Source: a virus | Reading direction: 5' to 3' (one strand) | UHGV virus genome: UHGV-0139594 | Length of the DNA stretch: 32,537 nucleotides | Shown: positions 2,227 through 31,927 of the stretch, one piece after another | Layout of the letters: every line of letters starts with the position of its first letter | How positions within the stretch are numbered: position 1 is the stretch's first letter | The notes under the pieces: generated by a model | What the model was told of the DNA's origin: nothing | Databases searched by the model: none | The model's input: only the letters and a program-made list of their open reading frames with translations | Position numbers and translations under genes: made by a program

Positions 2227-2780
2227 TTGCGTAACTCCGATAACTCGTTAAAACGTTCCATAAACATCCCGTAGGCATGGCCCGGTGCCTGTGGAATCAC
2301 TTTGAACATCTCTGTTGCCGGGATACCTTCCAGTACAGGCCAGAAAGAGCCATCATCAAGCCCGAGATCGCGGCGTTCGGTTGCCAGCATAATGAGATCG
2401 GCATATTTCACTGGCGTGCTCATAACAGGAGGTAACCCGTATTTCTCACGGATTACGGCGTCTATTTTTTCTTCCATCCGTTTATAGTCAGGAAGAAGTC
2501 GTTTCAGTGGTGCGGGGATGTCCTAGCAATATGCTTCTGTTGCATCATGCATTAAAGCTTCAAAAGCAAATTCCTGTGGCACCAGCTGGCTGCAAAGCAC
2601 CGCATGTTGGGCGACACTGTAGAAGTGTGAAAGATGTCCTGCAAAGCGACAGATATTTGAAAGGGAAACCGCGATATCGTTAATAACGATGTCGTCTTTA
2701 TTTATCCTGTCATAATAAAAATGCTTCCCGGAAAAAGTTTTAATAAATGACATTTTGTTCTCCACGTATATGCGCTGCAC
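2217..2780 (-). pseudogene. HD-domain phosphohydrolase (YfbR-like 5'-deoxynucleotidase family) interrupted by a single in-frame amber codon
   Basis: Track ORFs 2523..2780 and 2217..2477 are in the same frame, separated only by TAG at 2523..2525. Read-through translation gives ...LMHDATEAYC*DIPAPLKRLL..., reconstituting the HD...E...GDhPxPxK motif across the stop. Confidence 0.6.
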
Positions 2781-2789
2781 CGCGCTGAA

Positions 2790-3260
2790 TTCGGGTAAAA
2801 GGAAGCCCTCACCGTCCGGCGATTATTGAGTCAATTACATTTCCATAAATGCCCCCGTAGGGGCGGTTAGTTTCTCCACAAAACAGAGAAGAACACCTGC
2901 GGTGGCAGCCGCCCGGATGGATTGGGTTATGAGCCCGTCGTCCGGTGATGCTCTTCTCTGTTTTGTAAAAAGGACGGTACCAGCCGGAAGCAAGGGTACA
3001 AGCTGGTACCGCCAAGACTACACACAGCATAAAGTTGTGGTGCCGGGTGCCTCCCGGTGCCTGGCGAAGGTTGCACACCAGGCGGGTGGGTATCCACAGA
3101 AGGTCGACTGTCAGCCTCAACCTTAACCCGCGTGCGCTGAGCCGCATTCACCACAACGCTAAGGATTCTCTCTGGTTGAAAATACTTAGCTGTTATGTGC
3201 CTGTCTTTTCACCACTTCAGGCTCGGTGGTATCCTTTTAAGCCCGTATACATAAAAGGAA
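2790..3260. other. GC-rich, ORF-poor segment with nested inverted repeats; candidate structured RNA or degraded insert
   Basis: No convincing ORF; several overlapping junk ORFs in multiple frames. Long-range complementary segments: ACAAAACAGAGAAGA/TCTTCTCTGTTTTGT, GGTACCAGC/GCTGGTACC, GTTGTGGTG/CACCACAAC, CCCCGTAGGGG. Confidence 0.25.
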
Positions 3261-3266
3261 AATCAA

Positions 3267-3512
3267 ATGACTTTTGATGAAAAAGAACTTGATAATGCAA
3301 TTAATAAAATCATCGTAACGTCGCTCTTTTCCTGTCTCAGCGACACTCAGCAAAAACAGTTCTACGAATCGGCTTTCAACATGATCGAGCGTTGTTGTTT
3401 CTGCGATGCCGACGAGTTACCTGAAAAAATCAGGAAACAGTTGGCTGATGCTCTTCGAGTGCGACTTTCTGACCAATTTTCTGAAATGTACTCTCCGAAT
3501 TTGGACAAATAG
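3267..3512 (+). CDS. Hypothetical protein (81 aa)
   Basis: ORF with AAGGAA-type RBS upstream of ATG. Plus-strand gene inside an otherwise minus-strand early-left region. Confidence 0.45.
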   Translation: MTFDEKELDNAINKIIVTSLFSCLSDTQQKQFYESAFNMIERCCFCDADELPEKIRKQLADALRVRLSDQFSEMYSPNLDK

Positions 3513-6992: not shown

Positions 6993-7923
6993 ATTAACCG
7001 GCTATGTATGGGATGGTTGCGCTGCATCAGGCATGAAATTATCCAGCGTGGCAATTATGGCCCGCCTGGCTGATTTCAGTAATGACGAAGGTGTGTGCTG
7101 GCCATCAATTGAAACTATTGCCCGTCAGATTGGCGCGGGGATGAGTACCGTCAGGACGGCTATCGCACGGCTGGAAGCAGAAGGCTGGTTAACGCGTAAG
7201 GCGCGTCGCCAGGGTAACCGCAATGCGTCGAATGTTTATCAGCTTAACGTTGCGAAGCTTCAGGCAGCGGCATTTTCTCAACTGTCAGATTCTGACCCGT
7301 CAAAATCTGACGCATCAAAATCTGACCCGTCAAAATTTGATGCGTCGAAATCTGGCAAAAAAGCGGGTTTTCACCCGTCAGAATCTGGCGGGGATCCGTC
7401 AGTAAAATCAAAACATGATCCGTCAGATAAAAAACCTTCTCGTCCGGACGCTTCGCAACCGGACACGCAGACGGCTGAACAGGAGTTTTTAACTCGCCAT
7501 CCTGATGCGGTTGTATTCAGCCCTAAAAAGCGCCAGTGGGGAACGCAGGATGATTTGACCTGCGCACAGTGGCTCTGGAAAAAAATCATCGCCCTGTACG
7601 AGCAGGCCGCCGAATGTGACGGCGAGGTGGTTCGTCCCAAAGAACCGAACTGGACAGCCTGGGCAAACGAAATTCGCCTGATGTGTGTGCAGGATGGTCG
7701 TACTCACAAACAAATCTGCGAGATGTACAGCCGCGTCAGCCGCGATCCGTTCTGGTGCCGTAACGTGCTCAGCCCGTCGAAGTTGCGGGAAAAATGGGAT
7801 GAGCTTTCCCTGCGCTTATCACCGTCCGTCAGCACGTACACCGAAAAACGCGAAGACCCGTACTTCAAATCCAGTTACGACAACGTGGACTACAGCCAGA
7901 TCCCGGCAGGATTCAGGGGGTGA
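6982..7923 (+). CDS. Replication initiator / replisome organizer (lambda O-like role) with N-terminal wHTH
   Basis: N-terminus MARLADFSNDEGVCWPSIETIARQIGAGMSTVRTAIARLEAEGWL is a typical phage replication-protein wHTH; the gene contains an internal iteron array. Confidence 0.8.
   Translation: MSTKLTGYVWDGCAASGMKLSSVAIMARLADFSNDEGVCWPSIETIARQIGAGMSTVRTAIARLEAEGWLTRKARRQGNRNASNVYQLNVAKLQAAAFSQLSDSDPSKSDASKSDPSKFDASKSGKKAGFHPSESGGDPSVKSKHDPSDKKPSRPDASQPDTQTAEQEFLTRHPDAVVFSPKKRQWGTQDDLTCAQWLWKKIIALYEQAAECDGEVVRPKEPNWTAWANEIRLMCVQDGRTHKQICEMYSRVSRDPFWCRNVLSPSKLREKWDELSLRLSPSVSTYTEKREDPYFKSSYDNVDYSQIPAGFRG
7283..7402. repeat. Iteron array (putative ori) inside the replication initiator gene
   Basis: Tandem 15-bp units ACCCGTCAAAATCTG / ACGCATCAAAATCTG / ACCCGTCAAAATTTG / ATGCGTCGAAATCTG / ACCCGTCAGAATCTG plus degenerate copies, followed by an A-rich stretch. 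Encodes the SDSDPSKSDASKSDPSK low-complexity linker. Confidence 0.7.
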
Positions 7924-21113: not shown

Positions 21114-22344
21114 CACCATTCCGTCGAATACGCTGGTTCCGCTGTTTTATGCGGAAATGGATAACTCGGCGGCGAATACTGCACAGGACAGCGGGGCATC
21201 GTTGCTGATTGGTCACGCCAATAACGGTGCAGAGATTGTTGCCAACAGTCTGGTGCTGATGCCGTCGGCAGACTATGCACGCCAGATTTGTGGTGCGGGA
21301 AGTCAGCTGGCGCGTATGGTCGAGGCTTATCGCCAGACCGATCCGTTTGGCGAGCTGTATGTGATTGCCGTTCCGGAAGCCACAGGCGCGGCGGCAACGG
21401 TTACGCTGACGGTGACCGGAGCAGCAACCGAAACCGGCACGGTGAATGTTTATGTGGGACGTACCCGCGTGCAGGCACCGGTGACCAACGGCGATAACGT
21501 CACGACGATTGCCAGCAGTATCCAGGATGCCATCAATGCCGTTCCGGCCCTGCCGTTTACGGCCTCATCTTCGGCAGGCGTGGTCACGCTGACCGCGCGT
21601 CATAAGGGGCTTTGCGGGAATGAAATTCCTGTCAGCCTCAATTACTACGGCTTTGGTGGGGGCGAAGTGCTGCCAGCGGGCGTACAGATTGCCGTGGCGA
21701 CGGGGAGCGCCGGAACGGGCGCTCCGGTTCTCACCGGTGCGGTGGCTGCAATGGCGGATGAGCCGTTTGATTATATTGGCTTGCCGTTCAACGACACGGC
21801 CTCCGTTAACACGCTGGTGACCGAGATGAACGATACCAGCGGTCGCTGGAGCTATGCGCGTCAGCTGTATGGTCATGTGTATACGGCAAAGATCGGCACG
21901 CTGTCAGAACTGGTGACCGCAGGTGACCAGTTTAACCAGCAGCACATTACCCTGGCGGGATACGAAAAAGACACTCAGACGCCAGCCGACGAGCTGGCGG
22001 CAAGCCGTACCGCCCGCGCAGCGGTGTTTATTCGCAACGATCCGGCACGTCCCACGCAGACCGGTGAGCTGGTGGGTATGCTGCCTGCACCGAAGGGGAA
22101 ACGGTTCACGATGACCGAGCAACAGACCCTGCTGTCTCATGGCGTGGCAACGGCGTATGTCGAAAGTGGGGTAAACGCTCTACGTGGCATACACAACGAT
22201 TTACAAGAGCTAAACGAAAGGCTTTACCGTGGTTTTAGCCTGACCGTCGAGGAAGTCGAGATCACCTTGTCCGGCATATTCAGATTCAACTTTCAGGCCC
22301 AGCAGCGCGGTAATCAGATCCACTTCAACACGGTTTGCGTGTGA
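21097..22344 (+). CDS. Contractile tail sheath protein (Mu gpL-like), probably 3'-truncated
   Basis: MTISFNTIPSNTLVPLFYAEMDNS ... GSQLARM ... VTLTARHKGLCGNEIPVSLNYYG match Mu-like sheath signatures. Protein is 415 aa against an expected ~490, and the sheath-like sequence seems to stop near 22150. Confidence 0.7.
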   Translation: MTISFNTIPSNTLVPLFYAEMDNSAANTAQDSGASLLIGHANNGAEIVANSLVLMPSADYARQICGAGSQLARMVEAYRQTDPFGELYVIAVPEATGAAATVTLTVTGAATETGTVNVYVGRTRVQAPVTNGDNVTTIASSIQDAINAVPALPFTASSSAGVVTLTARHKGLCGNEIPVSLNYYGFGGGEVLPAGVQIAVATGSAGTGAPVLTGAVAAMADEPFDYIGLPFNDTASVNTLVTEMNDTSGRWSYARQLYGHVYTAKIGTLSELVTAGDQFNQQHITLAGYEKDTQTPADELAASRTARAAVFIRNDPARPTQTGELVGMLPAPKGKRFTMTEQQTLLSHGVATAYVESGVNALRGIHNDLQELNERLYRGFSLTVEEVEITLSGIFRFNFQAQQRGNQIHFNTVCV

Positions 22345-22716
22345 ACGGTAATGAGCCTCAGAGAAATCATTAACCGCTACCAGCATAGCATCAGAACGGT
22401 TTGGATATTGGCGGCTGTATTGTTCCAGGTCACGAGAAGTAACAGCGTTAATACTGCCGACGTGTTTCATCTGGAAAAGTTTGTTTGACCATTCCTGACG
22501 TTTAGAGGCGTTCCAGTCGCTTTGAGCGTAAGGCGAGGTTTCCCCAGCTACCTGCACAAACTGATCAATCAGGTCGGTAAGAAGAATGCTGTTTTCTGTA
22601 TGATATTGCACATCGAACAGATCGAGATTAGTAATCAGGGTATTAAGTGCATTCTCATAAGCAAAAGGAGTTACTACCGCAGTATTAACGCCAAAATATG
22701 TTGATAAATCATTCAT
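22210..22716 (-). CDS. Hypothetical protein (168 aa), last gene of a minus-strand operon
   Basis: ORF in a 3-gene minus-strand cluster; its 3' end overlaps the sheath ORF tail. No confident homology. Confidence 0.45.
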   Translation of the reverse strand: MNDLSTYFGVNTAVVTPFAYENALNTLITNLDLFDVQYHTENSILLTDLIDQFVQVAGETSPYAQSDWNASKRQEWSNKLFQMKHVGSINAVTSRDLEQYSRQYPNRSDAMLVAVNDFSEAHYRSHANRVEVDLITALLGLKVESEYAGQGDLDFLDGQAKTTVKPFV

Positions 22717-22730
22717 TATTATTTTCCTTG

Positions 22731-23114
22731 TTAAGTCGTAGGGATCGCAAGTTCTTCATAACTAGCAATTACAAAGCCGAGAGATTGCAGTTTTGCAATA
22801 ACACTTGCCTTTTCCATGCTGTTAAATTCAATCCCATCTTCAGCCAGAATAACGAAAGTAGGATGTGCAACCACTACGCTTTCCTGTCCTTCATAAGCCG
22901 GTTCAACTACTACGTGAGCAATATCAGATGCGGTTGTTGCTTTGGTGCCATCGGCTTTCAGCAAAGCCCCGACAATAAGATCGTCAGTGAGAGGTGAAGC
23001 CAGTTTGACGAGGCGATCTTGCAGCACCGGATCAGCAGCGTAAGCTACTACCTTACAGCGTGAACGGGAGTTATCCGCATTCACTACTTTTAATTTTCCA
23101 TATGGGTTAGCCAT
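22731..23114 (-). CDS. Hypothetical protein (127 aa)
   Basis: ORF in the same operon. Weak resemblance to head-decoration-type proteins (ADGTKATTASDIAHVVVE), not reliable. Confidence 0.45.
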   Translation of the reverse strand: MANPYGKLKVVNADNSRSRCKVVAYAADPVLQDRLVKLASPLTDDLIVGALLKADGTKATTASDIAHVVVEPAYEGQESVVVAHPTFVILAEDGIEFNSMEKASVIAKLQSLGFVIASYEELAIPTT

Positions 23115-23118
23115 AAGA

Positions 23119-23316
23119 TTATTTTCCTTTCAGTTGTTTAATTTTAGATTTAAGGGCATCAGCAAGACTAACCGCATCAGCCGATTTAAATAATTGAGCA
23201 GTGGTAGAACGAAGACTTTCGGGAGTAACTCCCAACAGTGCGGCAACCTTAATGAGGTTTTCATCACTAACAATCATCGTTTCCCCGTCTTTGCTGATAA
23301 TCATTTCTTGTTTCAT
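23119..23316 (-). CDS. Hypothetical small protein (65 aa)
   Basis: Start taken at the internal ATG (MKQEMIISKDG) with an AGGAA-type RBS; first gene of the cluster. Confidence 0.4.
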   Translation of the reverse strand: MKQEMIISKDGETMIVSDENLIKVAALLGVTPESLRSTTAQLFKSADAVSLADALKSKIKQLKGK

Positions 23317-24300
23317 AAATAACGTTCCTGTTAGTGCCAGACAAATAAAAAGCCCCAATGCCGTAAGAGGTTAATTCTGACCAGCAAAGGGGCTTTAACG
23401 TGCGGGCAATTACATAATTGATAAGTTAAACTATAAGAGGATTAAACATATCAGCAAATACACTTTTTAAATATACTTGATGATATGCTTAAAGGGTGAA
23501 TAGATACTCCTGAAAACATGCTCTTAGGAAAACATGCGGAATCAATCAGGAATATCTATTCGGGGCGCGGTGGCCAACCGCTATCTTTCATGGTGTGGAT
23601 GCACCAGTCAGATTTTAAGGAATCACTATTCCAATCTACTCACAGATTAAATTTTTAATAATGATTAACTACACCAACAGTAATCTACCGTTTCAGAAAA
23701 TCGTTTTTACAACCAAAGCTTATAGATCCGCATTCTATAAAACCCGTTTTGCTATCAATATTTCCAAAGTTTATTGCACCATTCTTAGCTAAACTCTCTC
23801 TGCTTGCGGCTAACGCTATGCAGATGATTGTTTTTGACAACAACTTAATAGATTGTTCTGTTACTAACTTCTGTCATTAAATAATAGTTTAATGATGTTA
23901 GTAAATAGTTATAAAATATAACTATCAGTGTAAGGCTCTTTAATATTTTCTGACAAAATAAGGAGCTTTAGGATAAGCATAGATGAAAAATAAGAGCGGG
24001 AAGGGCAAGGAGATAACACCTACCCGCTTTTATCAAAATTAAGCACAATGCCTAACAACATTCATCAACACAACGTAGAAACAATCAACAATCAAAGAGG
24101 GAGTTATGATTATTCTAAAACTTCTTGAGAGATGGAAGGTAATATTTGTTAGAGGTTAATGCCACTCAACCTTTGAGGCTATCACCTTCCATATGCAGGG
24201 ATTTATGACAGTAGAAGGATTAACACCAGTCAAAACCTTTTTATCTACCCCTAATATCATTATATAATGAAATCGTTATAAATGCAAATGATTTTCATTA

Positions 24301-24609
24301 TCATTTAGAGAAAATAGCACTTTTTGCTAAATCGTCTACTAATTGCTGAATCTCTTCACTTGCAGCCTTTAACGTGCTGGCGGTGTCTGTGATGGTTTGA
24401 GTGCACATCTTGGCATCGTCCTCAATTAGCTCTAAATCGCTCACCAGAGAGATAAAATCGTCAAGGCTTACATTCACCTTCATTAAGCTAATAACGCATT
24501 GAGAGAGCGTGTAATCGCATAAATCTGAATAGGCTTGATTTATTCTTGTTTGTAGTGAGATAGTCAGATCTAAAAGTTGTTCCATTGCATTGCTAATATC
24601 TTCTTCCAT
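24301..24609 (-). CDS. Hypothetical acidic protein (102 aa)
   Basis: AAGGAG RBS; start overlaps upstream stop (TAATG); AT-rich. Confidence 0.5.
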   Translation of the reverse strand: MEEDISNAMEQLLDLTISLQTRINQAYSDLCDYTLSQCVISLMKVNVSLDDFISLVSDLELIEDDAKMCTQTITDTASTLKAASEEIQQLVDDLAKSAIFSK

Positions 24610-24854
24610 TATGCGGCTTCTCCTTGTAATGCATCATTAATCATATTCAATACGATGTTAAAAGGTGTCTTGAGCGTCAGCACTTCATCACGATAACGCT
24701 CTAATGCTTCGTAGTCTTCTGTTTCTTTTGCCAGTCGGATTAACTCAGCATAGTTTTTTGCATCAGACAGGATCATCTGAAATAATTGTGTTTCTTGAAT
24801 ATAGCCAATCATTATTTTTCCTTTTTCGAATATTTTCATTGGGCGCTTATACAT
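24609..24854 (-). CDS. Hypothetical protein (81 aa or shorter)
   Basis: Coupled to downstream gene; alternative start at internal Met with AAAGGA RBS. Confidence 0.45.
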   Translation of the reverse strand: MYKRPMKIFEKGKIMIGYIQETQLFQMILSDAKNYAELIRLAKETEDYEALERYRDEVLTLKTPFNIVLNMINDALQGEAA

Positions 24855-24869
24855 ACACCCATCATTTTA

Positions 24870-25253
24870 TTAGTTAGAACGTTTGTTAGAAGCTAATGTA
24901 TCTTCTAAATGAGCCATCAGATCGACTTCCGATGCACCACCTACACAATTATTGAAAGCGTTAAATCCCAAAAAATGATGATAGGAGCTAAACCCTAAAA
25001 GTTGCCAACGCTTCAGAGTGCCATCAGAAATTATTGTTTGTTTTCTTGTTCTTGGGCGAAAGTAAACGCCTGGCATTGACTGGATTATTTCTAATTCTTT
25101 ATTACTTAATTCAGGGGATTCTATTTCAAGAATAAATATTATCTCTTCCCCTGGAATTTCATTATTGGTATGTGTCGGTGGACGTTGTCTTTTTGAATTG
25201 AAATTACTGTTTTTTTCAATACGTTTTAAGTTATTCTTTTTCTTTCTTCCCAT
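24870..25253 (-). CDS. Hypothetical protein with basic N-terminus (127 aa)
   Basis: AAGAGGG RBS; N-terminal Lys/Arg-rich segment MGRKKKNNLKRIEKN. Confidence 0.5.
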   Translation of the reverse strand: MGRKKKNNLKRIEKNSNFNSKRQRPPTHTNNEIPGEEIIFILEIESPELSNKELEIIQSMPGVYFRPRTRKQTIISDGTLKRWQLLGFSSYHHFLGFNAFNNCVGGASEVDLMAHLEDTLASNKRSN

Positions 25254-25627
25254 TTTCCCTCTTTTTATGTGGATTATAAAAACTTAATGCCATTGTTACG
25301 ATGAATATCGCCATAAATGCATTTGCCATATGTATTGCCCGATCTGTTGTTATTGATTGTTTGTGAGAAACAATTCAAAATCTTTGTTTAATTTCAAAAG
25401 ACGAAATGTAGTGCTGTTAATCCCTTCATAATCCAGCACACCGAACGATGTAAAATGATTTAACCAACAATTTCTGATAGTGCGCTGTAGCCGCCTAAAC
25501 TACAAAAGCTAACCACTGTCGGTGGTGAAAACTCTATTTCCAAAATAGCTTTTAAAATGTTGTATCCGCTTTCAGTTATTTCAATAGTTTTGTTTCCTAT
25601 AGTGATGTTATAAGTCATTTATTCTCC

Positions 25628-26221
25628 TTAGAAGGGTAGTGAATCATATATTGTGCTCTCACTTTTGAGATCAATTATCAAAGAGTCAAAATCATTTTCA
25701 CAAAGATAGATATTCTTTGAATCTAATGCTCGTTTTACAAAATCTTCTGTTTCTTCGTGCGGTGGTTTCTTCTTATCAAGGGAAAGAAGCCAAGTAAAAA
25801 TTTCGGGCCGCTCAGGGAACTCTGGCTCTTGTGTTTCTTCTTCAACGATGATTTCGGAAACATTCAATATTTCATTAGATTCGTCTTCTTTCTCAGAAGG
25901 ATCAGGTAGTGATGATTCTCCTTTTGGAATATCAAGCACTCGATAAAGGTTAGAGCTTCCTGGTCGTGCATCTTTTATAATTAATCCCATTTCGAGCAAT
26001 TTCTTAACCCTTTCTTCTGCTGCTCTTGGTGTTATGCCAAAAACATCGCCTATCTTAGCGTAAGAGGGAAATGCACGATCAAACCCTCTCAGATAGCAGT
26101 AAAGGTTTTTAGCACTATCTGTAAATTTATGCCCGTTTACTTGGCTTATTTTTAGAATCCACATAGGAACTTTTACAAATTGTTCTTCATTAATCATTAA
26201 AAATCTCCTTGATGTAATCAC
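25628..26221 (-). CDS. Rep-like winged-helix protein (putative replication initiator of an iteron replicon)
   Basis: N-terminal wHTH (NLYCYLRGF...SYAKIGDVFGITPRAAEERVKKLLEMGLI) resembling replication-initiator DNA-binding domains; acidic C-terminal half; iteron array about 1.2 kb upstream. Confidence 0.55.
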   Translation of the reverse strand: MITSRRFLMINEEQFVKVPMWILKISQVNGHKFTDSAKNLYCYLRGFDRAFPSYAKIGDVFGITPRAAEERVKKLLEMGLIIKDARPGSSNLYRVLDIPKGESSLPDPSEKEDESNEILNVSEIIVEEETQEPEFPERPEIFTWLLSLDKKKPPHEETEDFVKRALDSKNIYLCENDFDSLIIDLKSESTIYDSLPF

Positions 26222-26250
26222 GCTCTACGGCGCTACTATGGTGATAAAAA

Positions 26251-26421
26251 TCACTTGCTTTTGTTTGAGAGTGTTTCAGCCTCTCTTTTCAACATATCAA
26301 GAATGTAATCTGTAACAGTGATACGTTTACTTCTGGCTTCTTTAAACAACACCTGAAATACTTCATCAGGAATATGAAAGCAAGTGCGTGGTTGTCTTTT
26401 CTTTTCTGTAGTTTCGCTCAT
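26251..26421 (-). CDS. Small ribbon-helix-helix-like protein (56 aa)
   Basis: MSETTEKKRQPRTCFHIPDEVFQVLFKEARSKRITVTDYILDMLKREAETLSNKSK; GGAGAAGGAGAA RBS; below track cutoff. Confidence 0.5.
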   Translation of the reverse strand: MSETTEKKRQPRTCFHIPDEVFQVLFKEARSKRITVTDYILDMLKREAETLSNKSK

Positions 26422-26442
26422 AGTTTTCTCCTTCTCCTGTTA

Positions 26443-26625
26443 TTATTCTTTCTCTGCTTCTGCCTTACGCAGTTCATCAATAATTTTTAGTGCATCGTCA
26501 AAGCATTTTTCACGCTCTGGATAACCTCTACTCCTTGCCATATTACGATTCATTACTATTTGATGTCGTGTTAGCTCACCTTTTTTAAATGCCTCTGCGA
26601 CGTGTTTCGGTGTAAACCATTTCAT
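26443..26625 (-). CDS. Hypothetical small basic protein (60 aa)
   Basis: ORF immediately upstream of the RHH gene on the same strand. Confidence 0.45.
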   Translation of the reverse strand: MKWFTPKHVAEAFKKGELTRHQIVMNRNMARSRGYPEREKCFDDALKIIDELRKAEAEKE

Positions 26626-27454
26626 AAAAACTCCTTATTCAGTTAAAAGAAAAAAAACACCTTGCAAGCCTGACGGCTTCAAAGTGCATTGATTTTGATT
26701 ATTTAGAGAAGAATGTTTTTCTGTCCCTCTAATACCTATTATTACATATAAAGAAACATTTGTCAATACCCTTTTCGCAAAAATACGATCTTTTTCAGCA
26801 GCTTAAAATTTTTCTTAGCAATTCGTGCTCTTATGAGTACTCCTATTCTTCCTTATTCTCTAAAACGCTCTCTGACGAGGTTTTGATAAATACAATACAT
26901 TCCCTTATGTAGAGGCTGTTTAGCTCGCCAGAGGCTTATTTAAGCGGTAGAAACTTATTTAACCTTCAACTACTAAAACCATTCTTTCTTTTTTGTTTGT
27001 TGTTGGTTGTTGTCTGTGTCTATGTGCTAACATCGCTAATGCGTAGCACACAAGGTTATTGCACTCGTCAGAGTATTGCACAATAGATTTTCTCTTAAAT
27101 AGATTGATGATCGTTAGATTGGCGTAAGCCTCATCAATGGAACTATTGAAGCGCACAGCGCATAGACACTAACAACCATTCGCTTACGCTCAGGTTATTG
27201 CACATAGTAGATTACATATTCGTTGTGAGCGGCATTAGCGAACATAGATCTACTAACTAACATCAACAAACAAAAACTATGTGTTATGACAAGCAGTCTA
27301 ACGACTAACACTCTAACTTGTGCAAGGTTCTGGCGAATGCCAATAGATTAAGGGATAGTCGTTAGACTCCCCTAACGGGTATCCCTATAATTATTCTTTA
27401 AAGATAAAGGAATTTATAAAAGATAATTTAATTGTAGTTTGATAGTTGATCTAA

Positions 27455-27600
27455 TAGGTAACAAAATTCTGTAGGGGTGGCTAACAGTTTTCTGTGGGGG
27501 TGTCTAACATAATTCTGTTAGGGTTGGGGTAACAGTTTTCTGTTAGGGTGCATATTTCTTTAAAAGTTAAGGATAACAGAATTCTGTGGGGGTAGCTCAC
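27455..27600. repeat. Iteron array: five copies of a ~23-bp unit (AACAnnnTTCTGTnGGGGTnG)
   Basis: AACAAAATTCTGTAGGGGTGG, AACAGTTTTCTGTGGGGGTG, AACATAATTCTGTTAGGGTTGG, AACAGTTTTCTGTTAGGGTG, AACAGAATTCTGTGGGGGTAG at roughly 23-bp phasing. Confidence 0.7.
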
Positions 27601-28709
27601 AGTGACCTACCGTTACATCCATTTATCACATAACATCTGTGCAATGATCTTCTAAAAGTGTTTCTTGCTACCAAAATTAAACATCTAAAACAGGCTTAAA
27701 TTCAATGTAATTGATGATTAATCCCTGTGTAATTCCTACGTAAAAATTCAATGAAAAGTAGCTTAAAAGTGCAATTCTTACTTTCTTCACTTTTACATCA
27801 CTTTCGCAAAGCCTTGTGTAATGCGGCTACAGCGCACTATCAGAAATTGTTGATTAAAAATCAATCTATTATTTGTCGAACAAGTTTCTTTCACGTGTTG
27901 AAAATTTATGTTTAAATTTGCTTTCAATCTTTAATGTGCAATCACTATCAACATAAAAATAAAAAACCTTCTATTATATTTCATAGCATACAAAAGTCAA
28001 TAGAAGCCCTCTCGTGCTCCTACGTAAAAAATCCACCACTTTTCCCCTGATACATCAACTCAAGGCGTTCCATGTGTTCCTTAGTGCATATTACGATTAT
28101 TATGTTAAATGGATTTTGGCCCATATTTTGACCTGCACCCGCATAAACACTGGTTTCATCGCTTACAGCCCTTGTGAGACGTGGTGCTGTTTCTAGCATC
28201 TGATCCGACATAAAACCGATCATTCTCGTGTTTAGTGAAAGTTTAGTGAGAGACATTACAGAAAGGCTTTCTGTGTAATGATTTAATAGGTAAAAACGAT
28301 GTTGATTACGCAAGAAAATTCCTTGCTGATATTTGGGGATTCTGGATTTTCCAGATCGGGGGGCGGTGAAAATCGCGTTAAGCACTTCTCGCAATCTAGC
28401 CATAAGGGAAGGGATAAAGGTATTTAGATGTATTTATAGCTATTTATGGCTATTTATTTTTTATTTACCTTAATTTAAAAATAGCCTTATAAATCAATAA
28501 GATACAGGACTATCTGTTTATATTTTAATCAATTAAATCAAGTTTAATACCCTTAAACCACCTGAAAATAACCTTAAATACCCCAATAATTAATTTTAAC
28601 GATTCCTGTGCTCTCTCCTACTTTGCAAAAAGGCAAAAAAAGCCCATAGAGGCACAAAAATATTAAAACCAATAACTCAATAATGCCTCTACAAGAGCTT
28701 CTCTAACTG

Positions 28710-29261
28710 TTATTTTTGATTGAGCTTACATCGATCCCATTGTTCTGTCGTTCTTGTGATACGATCGCTTATTGCAAAATTTAATAGCCAAGAATCATAA
28801 GCATAAACCTTGCTTTTATCATCTGCCATCATAAACTTGCCGTTAGCATTCAGTTTTGGCGATATCAAATATGTTCCATTTAATCTGTTAGCCTTGAAGC
28901 TATCTGCATATAAAGTTACTTGTGCGTATCCCTGAACACGTAATGCCCCTAAACGTCCGTTTTCGATTGATGCAATAGAGTATTGGCAAAGATAATTTTT
29001 GGCAGCAGGAGTCGTTTTCACTCCTTCAGTTTTTCGTGAATTATTTGATTGCGAGCTTCGAATAGAGGATGAAGGATAAGAGTATGAATGATTTTTATAA
29101 GATGAAGGGGCATAAGAGCCAATCCGGCACGTCTTACCAACAGCTATACACGAGTTACCACAAGGTATTCCTTTTTTGCAGTTTTTAGCAACTGCGGTAG
29201 AAGTTCCCCCTACAAACAACGTTGTAAAAATCATCATCCTCACAAATGCAGACCTGCGCAT
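28710..29261 (-). CDS. Secreted Cys-rich protein of unknown function (183 aa)
   Basis: N-terminal signal peptide (MMIFTTLFVGGTSTAVA), Cys cluster CKKGIPCGNSCIAVGKTC, Ser-rich linker, ~100-aa C-terminal domain; AT-rich. Confidence 0.55.
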   Translation of the reverse strand: MRRSAFVRMMIFTTLFVGGTSTAVAKNCKKGIPCGNSCIAVGKTCRIGSYAPSSYKNHSYSYPSSSIRSSQSNNSRKTEGVKTTPAAKNYLCQYSIASIENGRLGALRVQGYAQVTLYADSFKANRLNGTYLISPKLNANGKFMMADDKSKVYAYDSWLLNFAISDRITRTTEQWDRCKLNQK

Positions 29262-29655
29262 ATAACCTCCCTTTTTAGATTATTCTTATGCTATACACTT
29301 GCTTAAAAAAATAAAAGTGCCCTCTAACCTTTATCGTTCTCCATCACAATTTGAGAAGTAAGAGCAGCAACCTCAAGCGATGATCACGTTTGCGCCGATT
29401 TCAGAGAAAAAGACAGTAACTGAACTCACTATGAAGGCTAAACGTATCTTTACACTTGATGAAAACGTTCAAAAAACAACCTAACCCCAAAATTCAACAA
29501 ATAACAACATATTGTTTTTAAAAGAAAATTAAATCTACATCAAATATTGGTTGACGTAGATTGAGGTGAATAGTAGACTATTAGGGTAAATTGCCATTCT
29601 TGCAACATCATTTAATGCATGTTCTAATCCTCCTATCCCAAAACCGGAGGAAGTT

Positions 29656-29814
29656 ATGCATTTACTTTCAAAACATCTTCACACTATTCACTTTCTCGTT
29701 ATTGATGTATTCATTGTGGCTATTAGTTACCGCATTTGCATCGCTTCCAGTGAAGAGATGGACGCTGTTGCAATTATTGCTCAAGCAATGGCGATGTTAA
29801 CTAAACGACTTTAA
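29656..29814 (+). CDS. Hypothetical small hydrophobic protein (52 aa)
   Basis: GGAGG RBS 5 nt before ATG; converges on a hairpin shared with the next small gene. Confidence 0.35.
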   Translation: MHLLSKHLHTIHFLVIDVFIVAISYRICIASSEEMDAVAIIAQAMAMLTKRL

Positions 29815-29880
29815 TAATTTCACTATCAGGCGCATAAACACATCTTTGATCGCTGGATGTGTTATGCGCCTACTGGTGAT

Positions 29881-30033
29881 TCAATCCTTAAGCCATTTCA
29901 ACTCACTAAGGAGTTTTCTTTCTTCGTTCTCTCTCTGTTTACGCTCTAGCCAGGCTTTTCCTTCTGGCGTAGGCAGGAACTTACGAGCGTGAATCTTGCG
30001 GTTATTACGTTTGATAGCTGCAATGTTTTTCAT
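29881..30033 (-). CDS. Hypothetical small basic protein (50 aa)
   Basis: AGAGG RBS; MKNIAAIKRNNRKIHARKFLPTPEGKAWLERKQRENEERKLLSELKWLKD. Confidence 0.35.
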   Translation of the reverse strand: MKNIAAIKRNNRKIHARKFLPTPEGKAWLERKQRENEERKLLSELKWLKD

Positions 30034-30639
30034 CGTGTGCCTCTGTATTCATATGAAAATTAACAAGTTACATACTACACAGGGAGACTACGCATAAAAC
30101 ACAATACAAGTAAAGATACATTTTCAAGACAATAGGAGCCATAAAGCGCCTTTGATGGTTATACCAAAAAATAAGCGCCGTAGGCGTATCCACTAAAAAG
30201 GGCTTTTTCACAAAAGCTATGAAGTCTTAGCAGTTCTTCTCTTATCAGGCACCCGTTGTACTCCGGTGGACGAAACCGTGCTAGAGCTTGATTCTTTCCC
30301 GATCAAGTTAGGTTTTGAAGAGGTGGGCTTTAATCCACTATTGCACTTAAAACTCTTCCCATCATTTAGCCTGTTTATCCTCTGCAACGTCTCACGACGT
30401 GTAGCATCATTGGACACCGCGCCAGGTGTGGAACATCTTGCTAAGAGTTTTGGTAGAAGGTTTAGAGACGGTGGCACGTCTTCCAGCTTCAAAGGAACTT
30501 GTTACGAGGTTGAGCCTGGGAACTACTCGCCCATACGTGTTAAACTACCAAAAGCCCATAACAACGTATAGGCGTTTGTAAGTGATAACAGAAGATACAA
30601 TTTCTTAGAGAAGTTAAGCTAAGTTATTGATTTTCTTGA

Positions 30640-30685
30640 TGGTGCCGATAATAGGAGTCGAACCTACGACCTTCGCATTACGAAT
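30640..30685 (-). repeat. Inverted 46-bp copy of the thrW 3' end (anticodon loop to CCA): att core remnant
   Basis: TGGTGCCGATAATAGGAGTCGAACCTACGACCTTCGCATTACGAAT is the exact reverse complement of tRNA positions 31..76 (window 109..154). Confidence 0.85.
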
Positions 30686-30889: not shown

Positions 30890-31168
30890 TGATTAACCCG
30901 TTTAATTGTACTCCTCATGGGCAATCAGCAGTCCTCAGAGTAATGGAATGGCAGAAAGGTTCGTGAAAACGATGAAGGAAGACTACATCGCGTTCATGCC
31001 GAAACCGAATGTAAGAACGGCATTGCATAATCTTGCAGTGGCGATCGAACATTACAATGGAAACCATCCGCACAGTGCGTTGGGTTATCGCTCTCTGCGA
31101 GAATATCGACGTCAGCGGGTAACGTTAACTTAAGATACACCCCCTGTCTGGAAATAAGGGGGCAAGAA
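30890..31168 (+). mobile_element. IS2-like (IS3 family) remnant: 3' end of transposase OrfB plus terminal repeat
   Basis: [59 protein letters not shown] resembles the IS2 OrfB C-terminus; downstream TGTCTGGAAATAAGGGGGCAA resembles the IS2 right end. No upstream transposase sequence. Confidence 0.6.
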
Positions 31169-31174
31169 CAATGA

Positions 31175-31927
31175 TCAGATTCCCTGGTGAGTAAGAATTT
31201 TACTTTCTGAACTCCTCTGAGAGTATTGACTTGGAGAAATACCAAAATAACGTCTAAATACATAAGTAAAGTATGAGACACTGGCATAACCACAGACCTT
31301 AGCTACTTTACTAATAGGATAACAACGAGTGCTGAGTAAATATTCAGCCATTTGCATCCTCTCATCAAGTATGATCTTACTGAATGATACCCCCTCTTCT
31401 TTCAATTTCCTCTTTAGTAAACTTTCGCTGAGATATAATCTTGATGATATATCCTTAAGACGCCATGGTGCAGATAAATCCGTATGAATAATCGTTTTAA
31501 CTTTAGCCCCTGTGCTTTTCAAACATCCAAACAGAAATACTCCAAATTGTTTTTCAGAAGAAAATGCAGAGAGACATGTAAAAGCAATAGACTCATCAAA
31601 AATTTCTATGTATTCAGCACAGTGATTAGCCCAACTAATTAATCCTTTAATTAAACTGAAGTCAGCAAAGTTTATTTTTAAATAAGATGGATATTCCCTA
31701 CAATCAGAAATATCCCTTAAGTTATTAGCTTTCAAATAGCGACTAATAAACTCAGCGCCAAAATCCGCCACTATCACTCTTTCAGGATACGTCAGGAAAA
31801 AATCTCTAGAGCTAGAGTCGACAAGTACAGATGAACCTCTCTCCAGAAACACAATCTCTTTTCCTAAATAAACATCAAAGGACTCCAAAATCAATATAAC
31901 TGAACATGTAGTTGCCATATCATCCAC
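31175..31927 (-). CDS. AraC-family transcriptional regulator, AppY/Rns-like
   Basis: C-terminal double HTH (WRLKDISSRLYLSESLLKRKLKEEGVSFSKIILDERMQMAEYLL...VAKVCGYASVSYFTYVFRRYFGISPSQY); AT-rich gene with AT-rich upstream region. Confidence 0.8.
   Translation of the reverse strand: MDDMATTCSVILILESFDVYLGKEIVFLERGSSVLVDSSSRDFFLTYPERVIVADFGAEFISRYLKANNLRDISDCREYPSYLKINFADFSLIKGLISWANHCAEYIEIFDESIAFTCLSAFSSEKQFGVFLFGCLKSTGAKVKTIIHTDLSAPWRLKDISSRLYLSESLLKRKLKEEGVSFSKIILDERMQMAEYLLSTRCYPISKVAKVCGYASVSYFTYVFRRYFGISPSQYSQRSSESKILTHQGI

Follow-up and report, generated by a model that had tools for sequence, protein, structure and literature searches.

A putative RepA-type initiator and its iteron origin in the probable replication module of an Escherichia coli phage satellite

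We analysed the viral genome UHGV-0139594, a stretch of 32,537 bp (the window, to which all positions refer unless another sequence is named) that consists of Escherichia coli DNA. Its right part holds a truncated phage satellite, and this study concerns the module of that element in which a minus-strand operon of three small genes, the last one encoding a RepA-like protein, is accompanied by an array of phased repeats. The features of the module, from left to right, were the following:

25628-26197, negative strand: repA-like gene, 189 aa; the open reading frame (ORF) extends to a GTG at 26221 (25628-26221, 197 aa)
25631-25648, negative strand: codons for the C-terminal tip Y-D-S-L-P-F
26251-26421, negative strand: ORF of a 56-aa ribbon-helix-helix-like (RHH-like) protein
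26443-26625, negative strand: ORF of a 60-aa protein, first in the operon
26650-26687, negative strand: intrinsic-terminator-like hairpin followed by U8, in the operon leader, downstream of the promoter and ahead of the first ORF
26766-26738, negative strand: predicted sigma-70 promoter, TTGACA-17-AATAAT with extended TG
26938-27398: strongly self-complementary ORF-free block of about 460 nt, between the operon promoter and the AT-rich stretch
27386-27458: AT-rich stretch, 73 bp, 82% A+T, a putative DNA-unwinding element abutting the iterons on the operon side
27459-27478, 27482-27501, 27505-27524, 27530-27549 and 27574-27593, positive strand: type-A iterons of 20 bp each, putative RepA sites and origin core
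27591-27611: 21-bp near-palindrome, GGTAGsTCACwGTGAsCTACC
27612-27900: ORF-free conserved flank

All three minus-strand ORFs (60 aa, 56 aa and a large one) that a first-pass annotation of this DNA had proposed were present. The largest had been given as a 197-aa protein; an ORF of that length does exist from the GTG at 26221, but translation almost certainly starts at the ATG at 26197 and yields 189 aa, because AAGGAG lies 7 nt upstream of this codon and RefSeq annotates a protein of 189 aa.

The pattern TAACANNNTTCTGTNNGGGT had five matches in the window, all of them on the positive strand and within 27459-27593. They started at 27459, 27482, 27505, 27530 and 27574, i.e., with spacings of 23, 23, 25 and 44 bp. 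Shuffled sequence would give 0.04 matches, and five were reached in none of 100 shuffles, so that the earlier description of five phased repeats of about 23 bp was borne out. In three of the five units a dyad core, ACAG-N4-CTGT, precedes an asymmetric G-rich flank. An AT-rich stretch of 70-90 bp lay beside the repeat array in every locus whose array was inspected, for all four of the repeat types described below. We place the putative origin at 27386-27611.

The AlphaFold2 (AF2) model of RepA comprised a winged helix (about residues 1-90), a disordered acidic linker (93-127) and a three-helix C-terminal domain (130-186). The acidic tail ascribed to the protein earlier is therefore real as an acidic region but not as a tail, since a helical domain follows it. 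RepA matched the PHROG family phrog_270, "replication initiation protein", at 1.2e-8, as well as several "O-like" PHROG families, and its sister alleles matched HTH_36 of Pfam. A profile built from seven RepA alleles collected 743 representative proteins, from which 108 distant ones were taken for family scans: 94 matched HTH_36, 90 phrog_270, 71 phrog_391 (O-like) and 41 DnaD_N, with minor matches to RP-C (16), RepL (9) and Phage_rep_O (9). The homology search of the Rep-like protein thus led to phage replication-initiator families, and on this comparison the RepA family belongs within the phage replication-initiator winged-helix superfamily. No match to Rep_3 was found for the window RepA or among its relatives, and a sequence search of the PDB with RepA gave nothing significant.

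The RepA alleles of E. coli presented four types of N-terminal domain: A (window and P0079), B (P0036), C (P0013, P0083 and P0107) and D (P0086). The types are loosely similar (about 28% identity for A versus C) and share the linker and the C-terminal domain; P0079 alone has an alternative C-terminal domain. We compared 21 loci, i.e., the window and 20 fetched related loci, and in all of them the repeat array touching the AT-rich stretch matched the type of the N-domain:

Type A, 7 loci: repeat ACCCCnACAGAAnnnTGTTA, 4-5 copies, period 23 bp
Type B, 2 loci: repeat GGTAGGTCACTGTGAGCTAGGG, 4-9 copies, period 22 bp
Type C, 8 loci: repeat CCTAGGAAATGAGTTCC, 1-4 copies, period about 22-23 bp
Type D, 4 loci: repeat GTAACGnnnnGTTAC, 5 copies, phasing irregular

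Mosaic loci were the most informative in this set. The window and L004 had repeats that were 20-54% identical, and their RHH genes and RepA N-domains were 24-50% identical, whereas most of the intervening sequence (27416-26860) was 88-100% identical, a module indel excepted, and the C-terminal half of RepA was 100% identical. Loci L008 and L009 carried N-domain A (96-100% nucleotide identity to the window) together with type-A repeats, and differed from the window in the RHH gene, the C-terminal domain and the intervening sequence, which was unrelated. In L008 the RHH allele was that of L006, yet the repeats were those of the window. According to these mosaics, therefore, the repeats track the winged helix and not the RHH protein. 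A scan of species-representative genomes with the RepA alignment gave two loci, both of type D; the number is this low because the search patterns were derived from the C-terminal domain, and the scan gave no further information on diversity beyond E. coli.

The near-palindrome at the outer edge of the array was kept there, in one to three copies, in most of the examined type-A and type-C arrays, and it was missing from L019, L020 and the type-D loci. The type-B iteron array is this same 21-bp sequence amplified four to nine times, with nearly perfect copies. Examples are found at 27591-27611 of the window, at 7283-7470 of L006 and at 7167-7235 of L008. Beyond it, the ORF-free flank kept 85-100% identity across most relatives of types A, B and C and holds two copies of AATCCCTGTGTAAT, at 27720 and 27809.

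The same N-domains also occur in lytic coliphages. Protein QNJ49226 of phage Mt1B1_P17 (328 aa; MT496970 20722-21708, which is 2328-3314 on the negative strand of sequence L015) was identical to the window RepA at 104 of 105 residues (99%) over residues 1-105 of both proteins, and at the DNA level the phage and the repA N-domain were 98.9% identical over 355 bp. At its C-terminus QNJ49226 matched MUG113 (23.6 bits, above the cut-off) and T5orf172 (17 bits), both of GIY-YIG type. Phage Inny carries a type-D domain with 97.7% identity, and no close phage copy of the type-B domain was found. By analogy with the Vibrio system described below, lytic coliphages most likely fight the satellite with a nuclease whose DNA-binding part is copied from that of the initiator, and the type-A repeats would be the target of the nuclease. 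The unstable copy number of the repeats and the swapping of modules have the look of escape from it.

The satellite family was found by Barth et al. (2023, NAR Genom Bioinform, PMC10448857) while cataloguing T5orf172 nucleases. They reported that coliphages Inny, Muut and Mt1B1_P17 carry odn-like "RepA_N-T5orf172" genes whose DNA-binding part matches bacterial genes, and predicted that 224 loci represent a new family of satellites, which have genes for capsid, decoration, tape measure, baseplate and integrase. The modular RepA N-domain was already noted in that work, with the RepA_N assignment made by HHsearch; no origin was mapped, and "iteron" does not figure in the text. In each phage nuclease, the second DNA-binding domain was described there as having no satellite counterpart, whereas we found one for QNJ49226, whose residues 119-210 were 88% identical to the type-C N-domain (P0013 residues 30-122). 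No later work on these satellites was found in the literature. The satellite family and its RepA were thus already known as predictions; the putative origin, the four specificities, the second nuclease-domain match, a tip resembling that of the single-stranded DNA-binding protein (SSB) and a structured block (see below) are new here. With the origin placed, the four cognate RepA/iteron specificities give direct experimental targets.

[quoted passage not shown] The origin of PLE is bound and cut by Odn, a nuclease of phage ICP1, which requires the iterons for this (PMC8263062). Both systems show co-variation of the N-domain with iterons in a non-coding region, a conserved C-terminal domain, a satellite without helicase or primase, and a lytic helper whose chimeric nuclease joins the same DNA-binding domain to a T5orf172-type domain; module swapping and origin restructuring are likewise known among PLE variants. 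They differ in the host, in the helper (a Phapecoctavirus here, ICP1 there) and in the satellite genes, which are unrelated. Moreover, hmmscan detected HTH_36 and not Pfam RepA_N in the present family, the E. coli nuclease has two satellite-derived domains in tandem, unlike Odn, and the E. coli system is known from sequence alone. If read in this way, the "origin-directed nuclease" arms race of PLE and ICP1 would extend to E. coli and to Phapecoctavirus phages, which feature in phage-therapy collections.

The repeats and their statistics, the protein family, the co-variation of N-domain and repeats and the domain capture by phages all emerge directly from the sequence comparisons. We consider it probable that the module serves the replication of an E. 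coli phage satellite and is made up of a RepA-type initiator and its cognate iteron origin. An initiator with an iteron origin had been proposed in the first-pass annotation, and the phrog_270 match, the co-variation, the AT-rich stretch and the domain copies in phage nucleases all support that proposal. As for the mechanism, we infer DNA binding, unwinding, replisome recruitment and helper dependence as follows. The N-terminal winged helix of RepA would bind the five 20-bp repeats (27459-27593), and the dyad core of the repeats makes dimers the probable binding form. Binding beside the 82%-AT stretch (27386-27458) would open the DNA, and the conserved C-terminal part of RepA (acidic linker, helical domain and terminal Y-D/E-x-L/I-P-F) would recruit a replisome that is not encoded by the element. 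Its source would be the host or a helper phage, a Phapecoctavirus such as Mt1B1_P17. The operon (60-aa gene, RHH gene and repA) would be driven from the promoter at 26766-26738 and gated by the leader terminator, and RepA would therefore probably be made only after induction.

Several observations weigh against this interpretation. The iterons, placed upstream of the operon earlier, are not directly upstream of it: they lie 834 bp from its first start codon, about 690 bp from its predicted promoter and 1.26 kb from repA. No DnaA box was found within 26.6-28.7 kb with one mismatch allowed, and the total in the window was below chance. The window RepA scored 20 bits with HTH_36, below the gathering score of 25; it had no hmmscan match to Pfam RepA_N (PF06970) at E<=1, and RepA_N was not among the top 25 families of the 108 relatives. 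Foldseek matched the RepA model to generic winged-helix regulators only (LexA, ArsR and MarR, E > 0.08), so that initiator and regulator are not separable by fold, and the Prokaryotic Genome Annotation Pipeline (PGAP) labels the protein "LexA family / transcriptional regulator". The 21 loci are phylogenetically non-independent, and the weight therefore rests on the mosaic pattern and not on the locus count. Two type-C loci, L012 and L013, also carry four type-D palindromes (7522-7664) outside the type-C array, which look like the footprint of a past module swap. Finally, repeat copy number was very unstable (4-9 in type B, 1-4 in type C).

Given the fold matches to the LexA N-domain, ArsR and MarR, with which the PGAP naming agrees, RepA might instead be a master transcriptional regulator, i.e., an Stl-like repressor/activator with the repeats as operators and a C-terminal part that senses a helper-phage protein. 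The dyad cores are operator-like, and consensus promoters flank the repeat region on both sides (positive strand, 27363-27391; negative strand, 28000-27973). Stl of the Staphylococcus aureus pathogenicity islands likewise combines a modular DNA-binding domain with a partner-binding domain. We regard this as unlikely, however, for the operon promoter is 690 bp away from the repeats, with no overlap, and the -35 element of the positive-strand promoter is deleted in L006 and L007. Besides, 90 of the 108 distant relatives fell into phage replication-initiator families and not into regulator families, the array always abuts an AT-rich stretch of 70-90 bp, and in PLE a phage nuclease built in the same way has been validated experimentally as targeting the origin (PMC8263062).

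A packaging function is improbable. The element has capsid and tail genes but no terminase, and must therefore direct the terminase of its helper to its own DNA; RepA could then be a small-terminase-like packaging specificity factor of the gpNu1 type and the repeats a pac/cosB-type site. The size (189-226 aa) and domain order of RepA resemble those of lambda gpNu1, a near-palindrome stands at the array edge (27591-27611), and a phage nuclease could profitably be aimed at such a site, too. Yet no match to a terminase small subunit (Pfam, PHROGs) was found for RepA or among the 25 commonest families of its 108 relatives, which match initiator families instead (O-like, DnaD_N, RP-C and RepL), and cosB has no AT-rich stretch of the unwinding type. 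It is very hard to credit, finally, that the RHH protein binds the repeats as a centromere-like site for partition, in the manner of R1 parC/ParR or TP228 ParG. The operon does encode a small RHH protein, and centromeres of type Ib/II typically have phased direct repeats, but there is no partition NTPase anywhere in the intact elements, type-C elements have repeats and no RHH gene, and L008 combines the RHH allele of L006 with the repeats of the window. We reject this reading, since repeat type and RHH allele do not go together.

As an initiator with its origin, the module resembles that of phage lambda in several respects: the winged-helix N-domain is related to O-like PHROGs, the C-terminal part is presumed to recruit the helicase system, DnaA boxes are absent, and four to five repeats of about 20 bp with internal dyad symmetry are followed by an AT-rich stretch, as in ori-lambda. 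Unlike in lambda, the repeats are outside the initiator gene, a P-like loader gene is absent and the protein is about 110 aa shorter; the window RepA had no Phage_rep_O match, although 9 of the 108 relatives did. With iteron plasmids (pSC101, R6K, P1 and F) the module shares direct repeats phased at about two helical turns beside an AT-rich stretch, and a small regulator gene upstream of rep. In the strict sense, however, the module is not the plasmid-like replicon suggested earlier: it has no Rep_3-type initiator with two winged helices, no DnaA boxes and no partition or incompatibility repeats, its repeats are 834 bp from the operon and far from the rep gene, and the element is phage-related and integrative. 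Matches to the replication region were present in 741 of 5426 complete E. coli genomes (about 14%) and were nearly always chromosomal. A plasmid origin of the element was rejected, as only 1 of the 895 matching places in E. coli genomes was on a plasmid. Two partial matches came from the plasmid database, of which one, a record of 4.9 Mb, is evidently chromosomal.

The C-terminal end of RepA deserves separate description. All RepA alleles end in Y-D/E-x(0-3)-L/I-P-F, e.g., YDSLPF in the window and YEDFDIPF in P0079. Residues Y184, P188 and F189 were invariant in alignment A1, and apart from this end the two versions of the C-terminal domain had no similarity. An [ILVMF]PF ending was found in 28 of 109 full-length distant representatives, in 13 of the 29 closest ones and in none of 267 control ORFs; many distant representatives end in DDFDIPF or EDSLPF. 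The tip of SSB, DDDIPF, docks many replication and repair proteins (PMC8509808), and the ends are alike: E. coli SSB finishes with ...DFDDDIPF and sister alleles of RepA with ...EDFDIPF. No description of initiators with SSB-like tails was found in the literature. In Mt1B1_P17, the phage SSB (L024 5862-6794) has PPMDFDDDIPF at an internal position, with 15 further residues after it (APIGLQYGRNFLHCF), and another ORF of 197 aa ends in EEDDIPW.

The ORF-free block on the operon side of the AT-rich stretch (26938-27398) had folding z-scores against shuffles of -5.05 on the positive strand and -3.57 on the negative strand. An unrelated sequence in the same place in L008 (7421-7860) gave -8.88 and -5.74, and in both loci the better-folding strand was antisense to the operon. 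Internal modules of about 100 nt were gained or lost between strains, and the closing long-range stems stayed. RNAalifold on 15 block variants, on both strands, gave two or three pairs with compensatory change; covariation is this sparse because the block sequences are nearly invariant, and the structure is thereby neither confirmed nor refuted. The block had no match in Rfam. It may act as a single-strand initiation signal, or give rise to a primer or activator RNA whose transcription runs toward the origin.

Tentatively, tip and block may be seen together, RepA being a minimal origin adaptor with an SSB-mimicking tip and the structured block a primer/activator RNA or a single-strand initiation signal. 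If so, the tip would recruit SSB-client proteins to the AT-rich stretch, such as PriA, primase, Pol III chi or their helper-phage equivalents, which would explain how a 13-kb element replicates without a helicase, primase or loader. The tip would then be a general and apparently undescribed recruitment device in the phage HTH_36 initiator family, present in about a quarter to half of the distant members. The SSB-tip-like C-terminus suggests a replisome-recruitment route for helper-dependent or minimal replicons.

For the 60-aa protein of the operon, neither a family match (Pfam, PHROGs) nor a sequence match in the PDB was found. The 56-aa protein likewise had no sequence-family match and nothing significant in a PDB sequence search. 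Its AF2 model (predicted local distance difference test score, pLDDT, 89) had an extended N-terminus and two helices, i.e., a beta-alpha-alpha fold, and the best Foldseek matches in the PDB were mostly RHH proteins (Arc, CopG, AmrZ and RHH antitoxins; probability <=0.98, template-modelling (TM) score 0.5-0.7) with non-significant E-values of 0.09-1. The RHH-like character proposed for it is thus supported at the level of the fold. The gene was missing in type-C elements and was elsewhere exchanged independently of repA. The protein is likely an accessory auto-regulator, and it is dispensable, because type-C elements do without it. The terminator in the operon leader has a stem of 12 bp with one bulge (26687-26658), a GUCA loop and a run of T8 at 26657-26650; in relatives the stem was conserved and the loop variable. 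Its presence implies control by read-through or antitermination, or a leader RNA of about 85 nt.

With regard to its setting, the module belongs to a rearranged integrated element. The rest of the window presented the following features:

1 to about 22170: tRNA-Thr(CGU), prophage integrase and a myovirus-type prophage
22170-22226: fragment of the satellite integrase, 57 bp
22225-30685: surviving satellite segment, from the N-terminal half of the capsid gene to the att repeat, its final 46 bp or so being the 3' part of tRNA-Thr
23359-24300: ORF-free gap of 942 bp, between a 79-aa ORF (downstream of the capsid module) and a 102-aa ORF
28710-29261, negative strand: 183-aa protein with a signal-peptide-like N-terminus, phrog_2578/14768 (1e-17)

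The myovirus-type prophage ends abruptly within its tail-sheath gene, which is fused to the 57 bp of satellite integrase. Compared by blastn with the intact element L001, the satellite segment was 99.7% identical over 8466 bp, and the integrase, the distal tail protein (Dit), the tape measure and half of the capsid gene were deleted from the window copy. By this comparison the window copy is an internally deleted form of an integrative element of about 13 kb, with its replication module intact. The suggestion that the module might be a remnant of an integrated satellite was therefore correct: it is an internally deleted copy of a member of the family predicted in PMC10448857, truncated and rearranged relative to the elements reported there; its intact relatives are sited at tRNA-Thr or at a second site. 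The absence of an integrase nearby, also remarked upon in the first-pass annotation, is true of the window beyond the 57-bp fragment but is an artefact of the deletion, since intact relatives have the gene. In other strains the island of about 13 kb is located between a tyrosine integrase and thrW. The junction between prophage and satellite integrase seen in the window was in none of the complete E. coli genomes of the collection, and the full tRNA-Thr (1-171) and the 46-bp tRNA fragment (30640-30685) are inverted relative to each other. This arrangement points to an inversion or deletion between two thrW-integrated elements.

Intact relatives are flanked by att repeats at the tRNA and have a gene set that includes capsid, decoration, tape-measure and baseplate/Dit genes. 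We identified an integrase with DUF6538 and Phage_integrase domains, a Dit-like tail protein (PF21821, 6e-28), a tape measure (phrog_16051, 4e-72) and a lambda-E-type capsid protein (PF03864 in several alleles) preceded by a protein of 120-127 aa. No terminase, portal, helicase or primase was found in them with Pfam and PHROGs, and there is no replication-loader gene. The satellite Dit and tape measure were 63% and 32% identical, respectively, to tail proteins of Mt1B1_P17 (L001 13271-15902 versus 77.7-80.5 kb of the phage), which points to this phage group as helper. In the first 100 kb of the Mt1B1_P17 genome neither a detectable match to the satellite capsid protein nor any array of type-A to type-D repeats was found. 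Phage-inducible chromosomal islands (PICIs), their capsid-forming kind (cfPICIs) and P4-like satellites are also integrative, helper-dependent elements of about 10-15 kb at tRNA genes, and cfPICIs encode a capsid as well; unlike them, the intact relatives had no alpA, Pri-Rep/alpha primase-helicase, terminase small subunit, rpp, portal, protease or full capsid module (Pfam/PHROGs), a difference also stated in PMC10448857.

The ORF-free gap at 23359-24300 had no annotation in any RefSeq relative. Its folding z-score was about -4.6 to -5.1 in three of four half-and-strand tests and -1.9 in the fourth (mononucleotide shuffles). Rfam gave only the tRNA over the whole window at the gathering threshold, and a permissive scan of 23300-28750 gave a single chance-level match (Yfr8, E 0.35); the ORF-free blocks are therefore not explained by any known RNA family. 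The gap could be a packaging site or a further RNA. Between the origin and the att site the elements have a variable cargo slot, occupied here by the 183-aa protein and in other elements by a resolvase-family recombinase. Past the satellite end (30906-31927) lie a transposase (rve-like) fragment and the gene of a 250-aa AraC-family regulator, both unrelated to the module.

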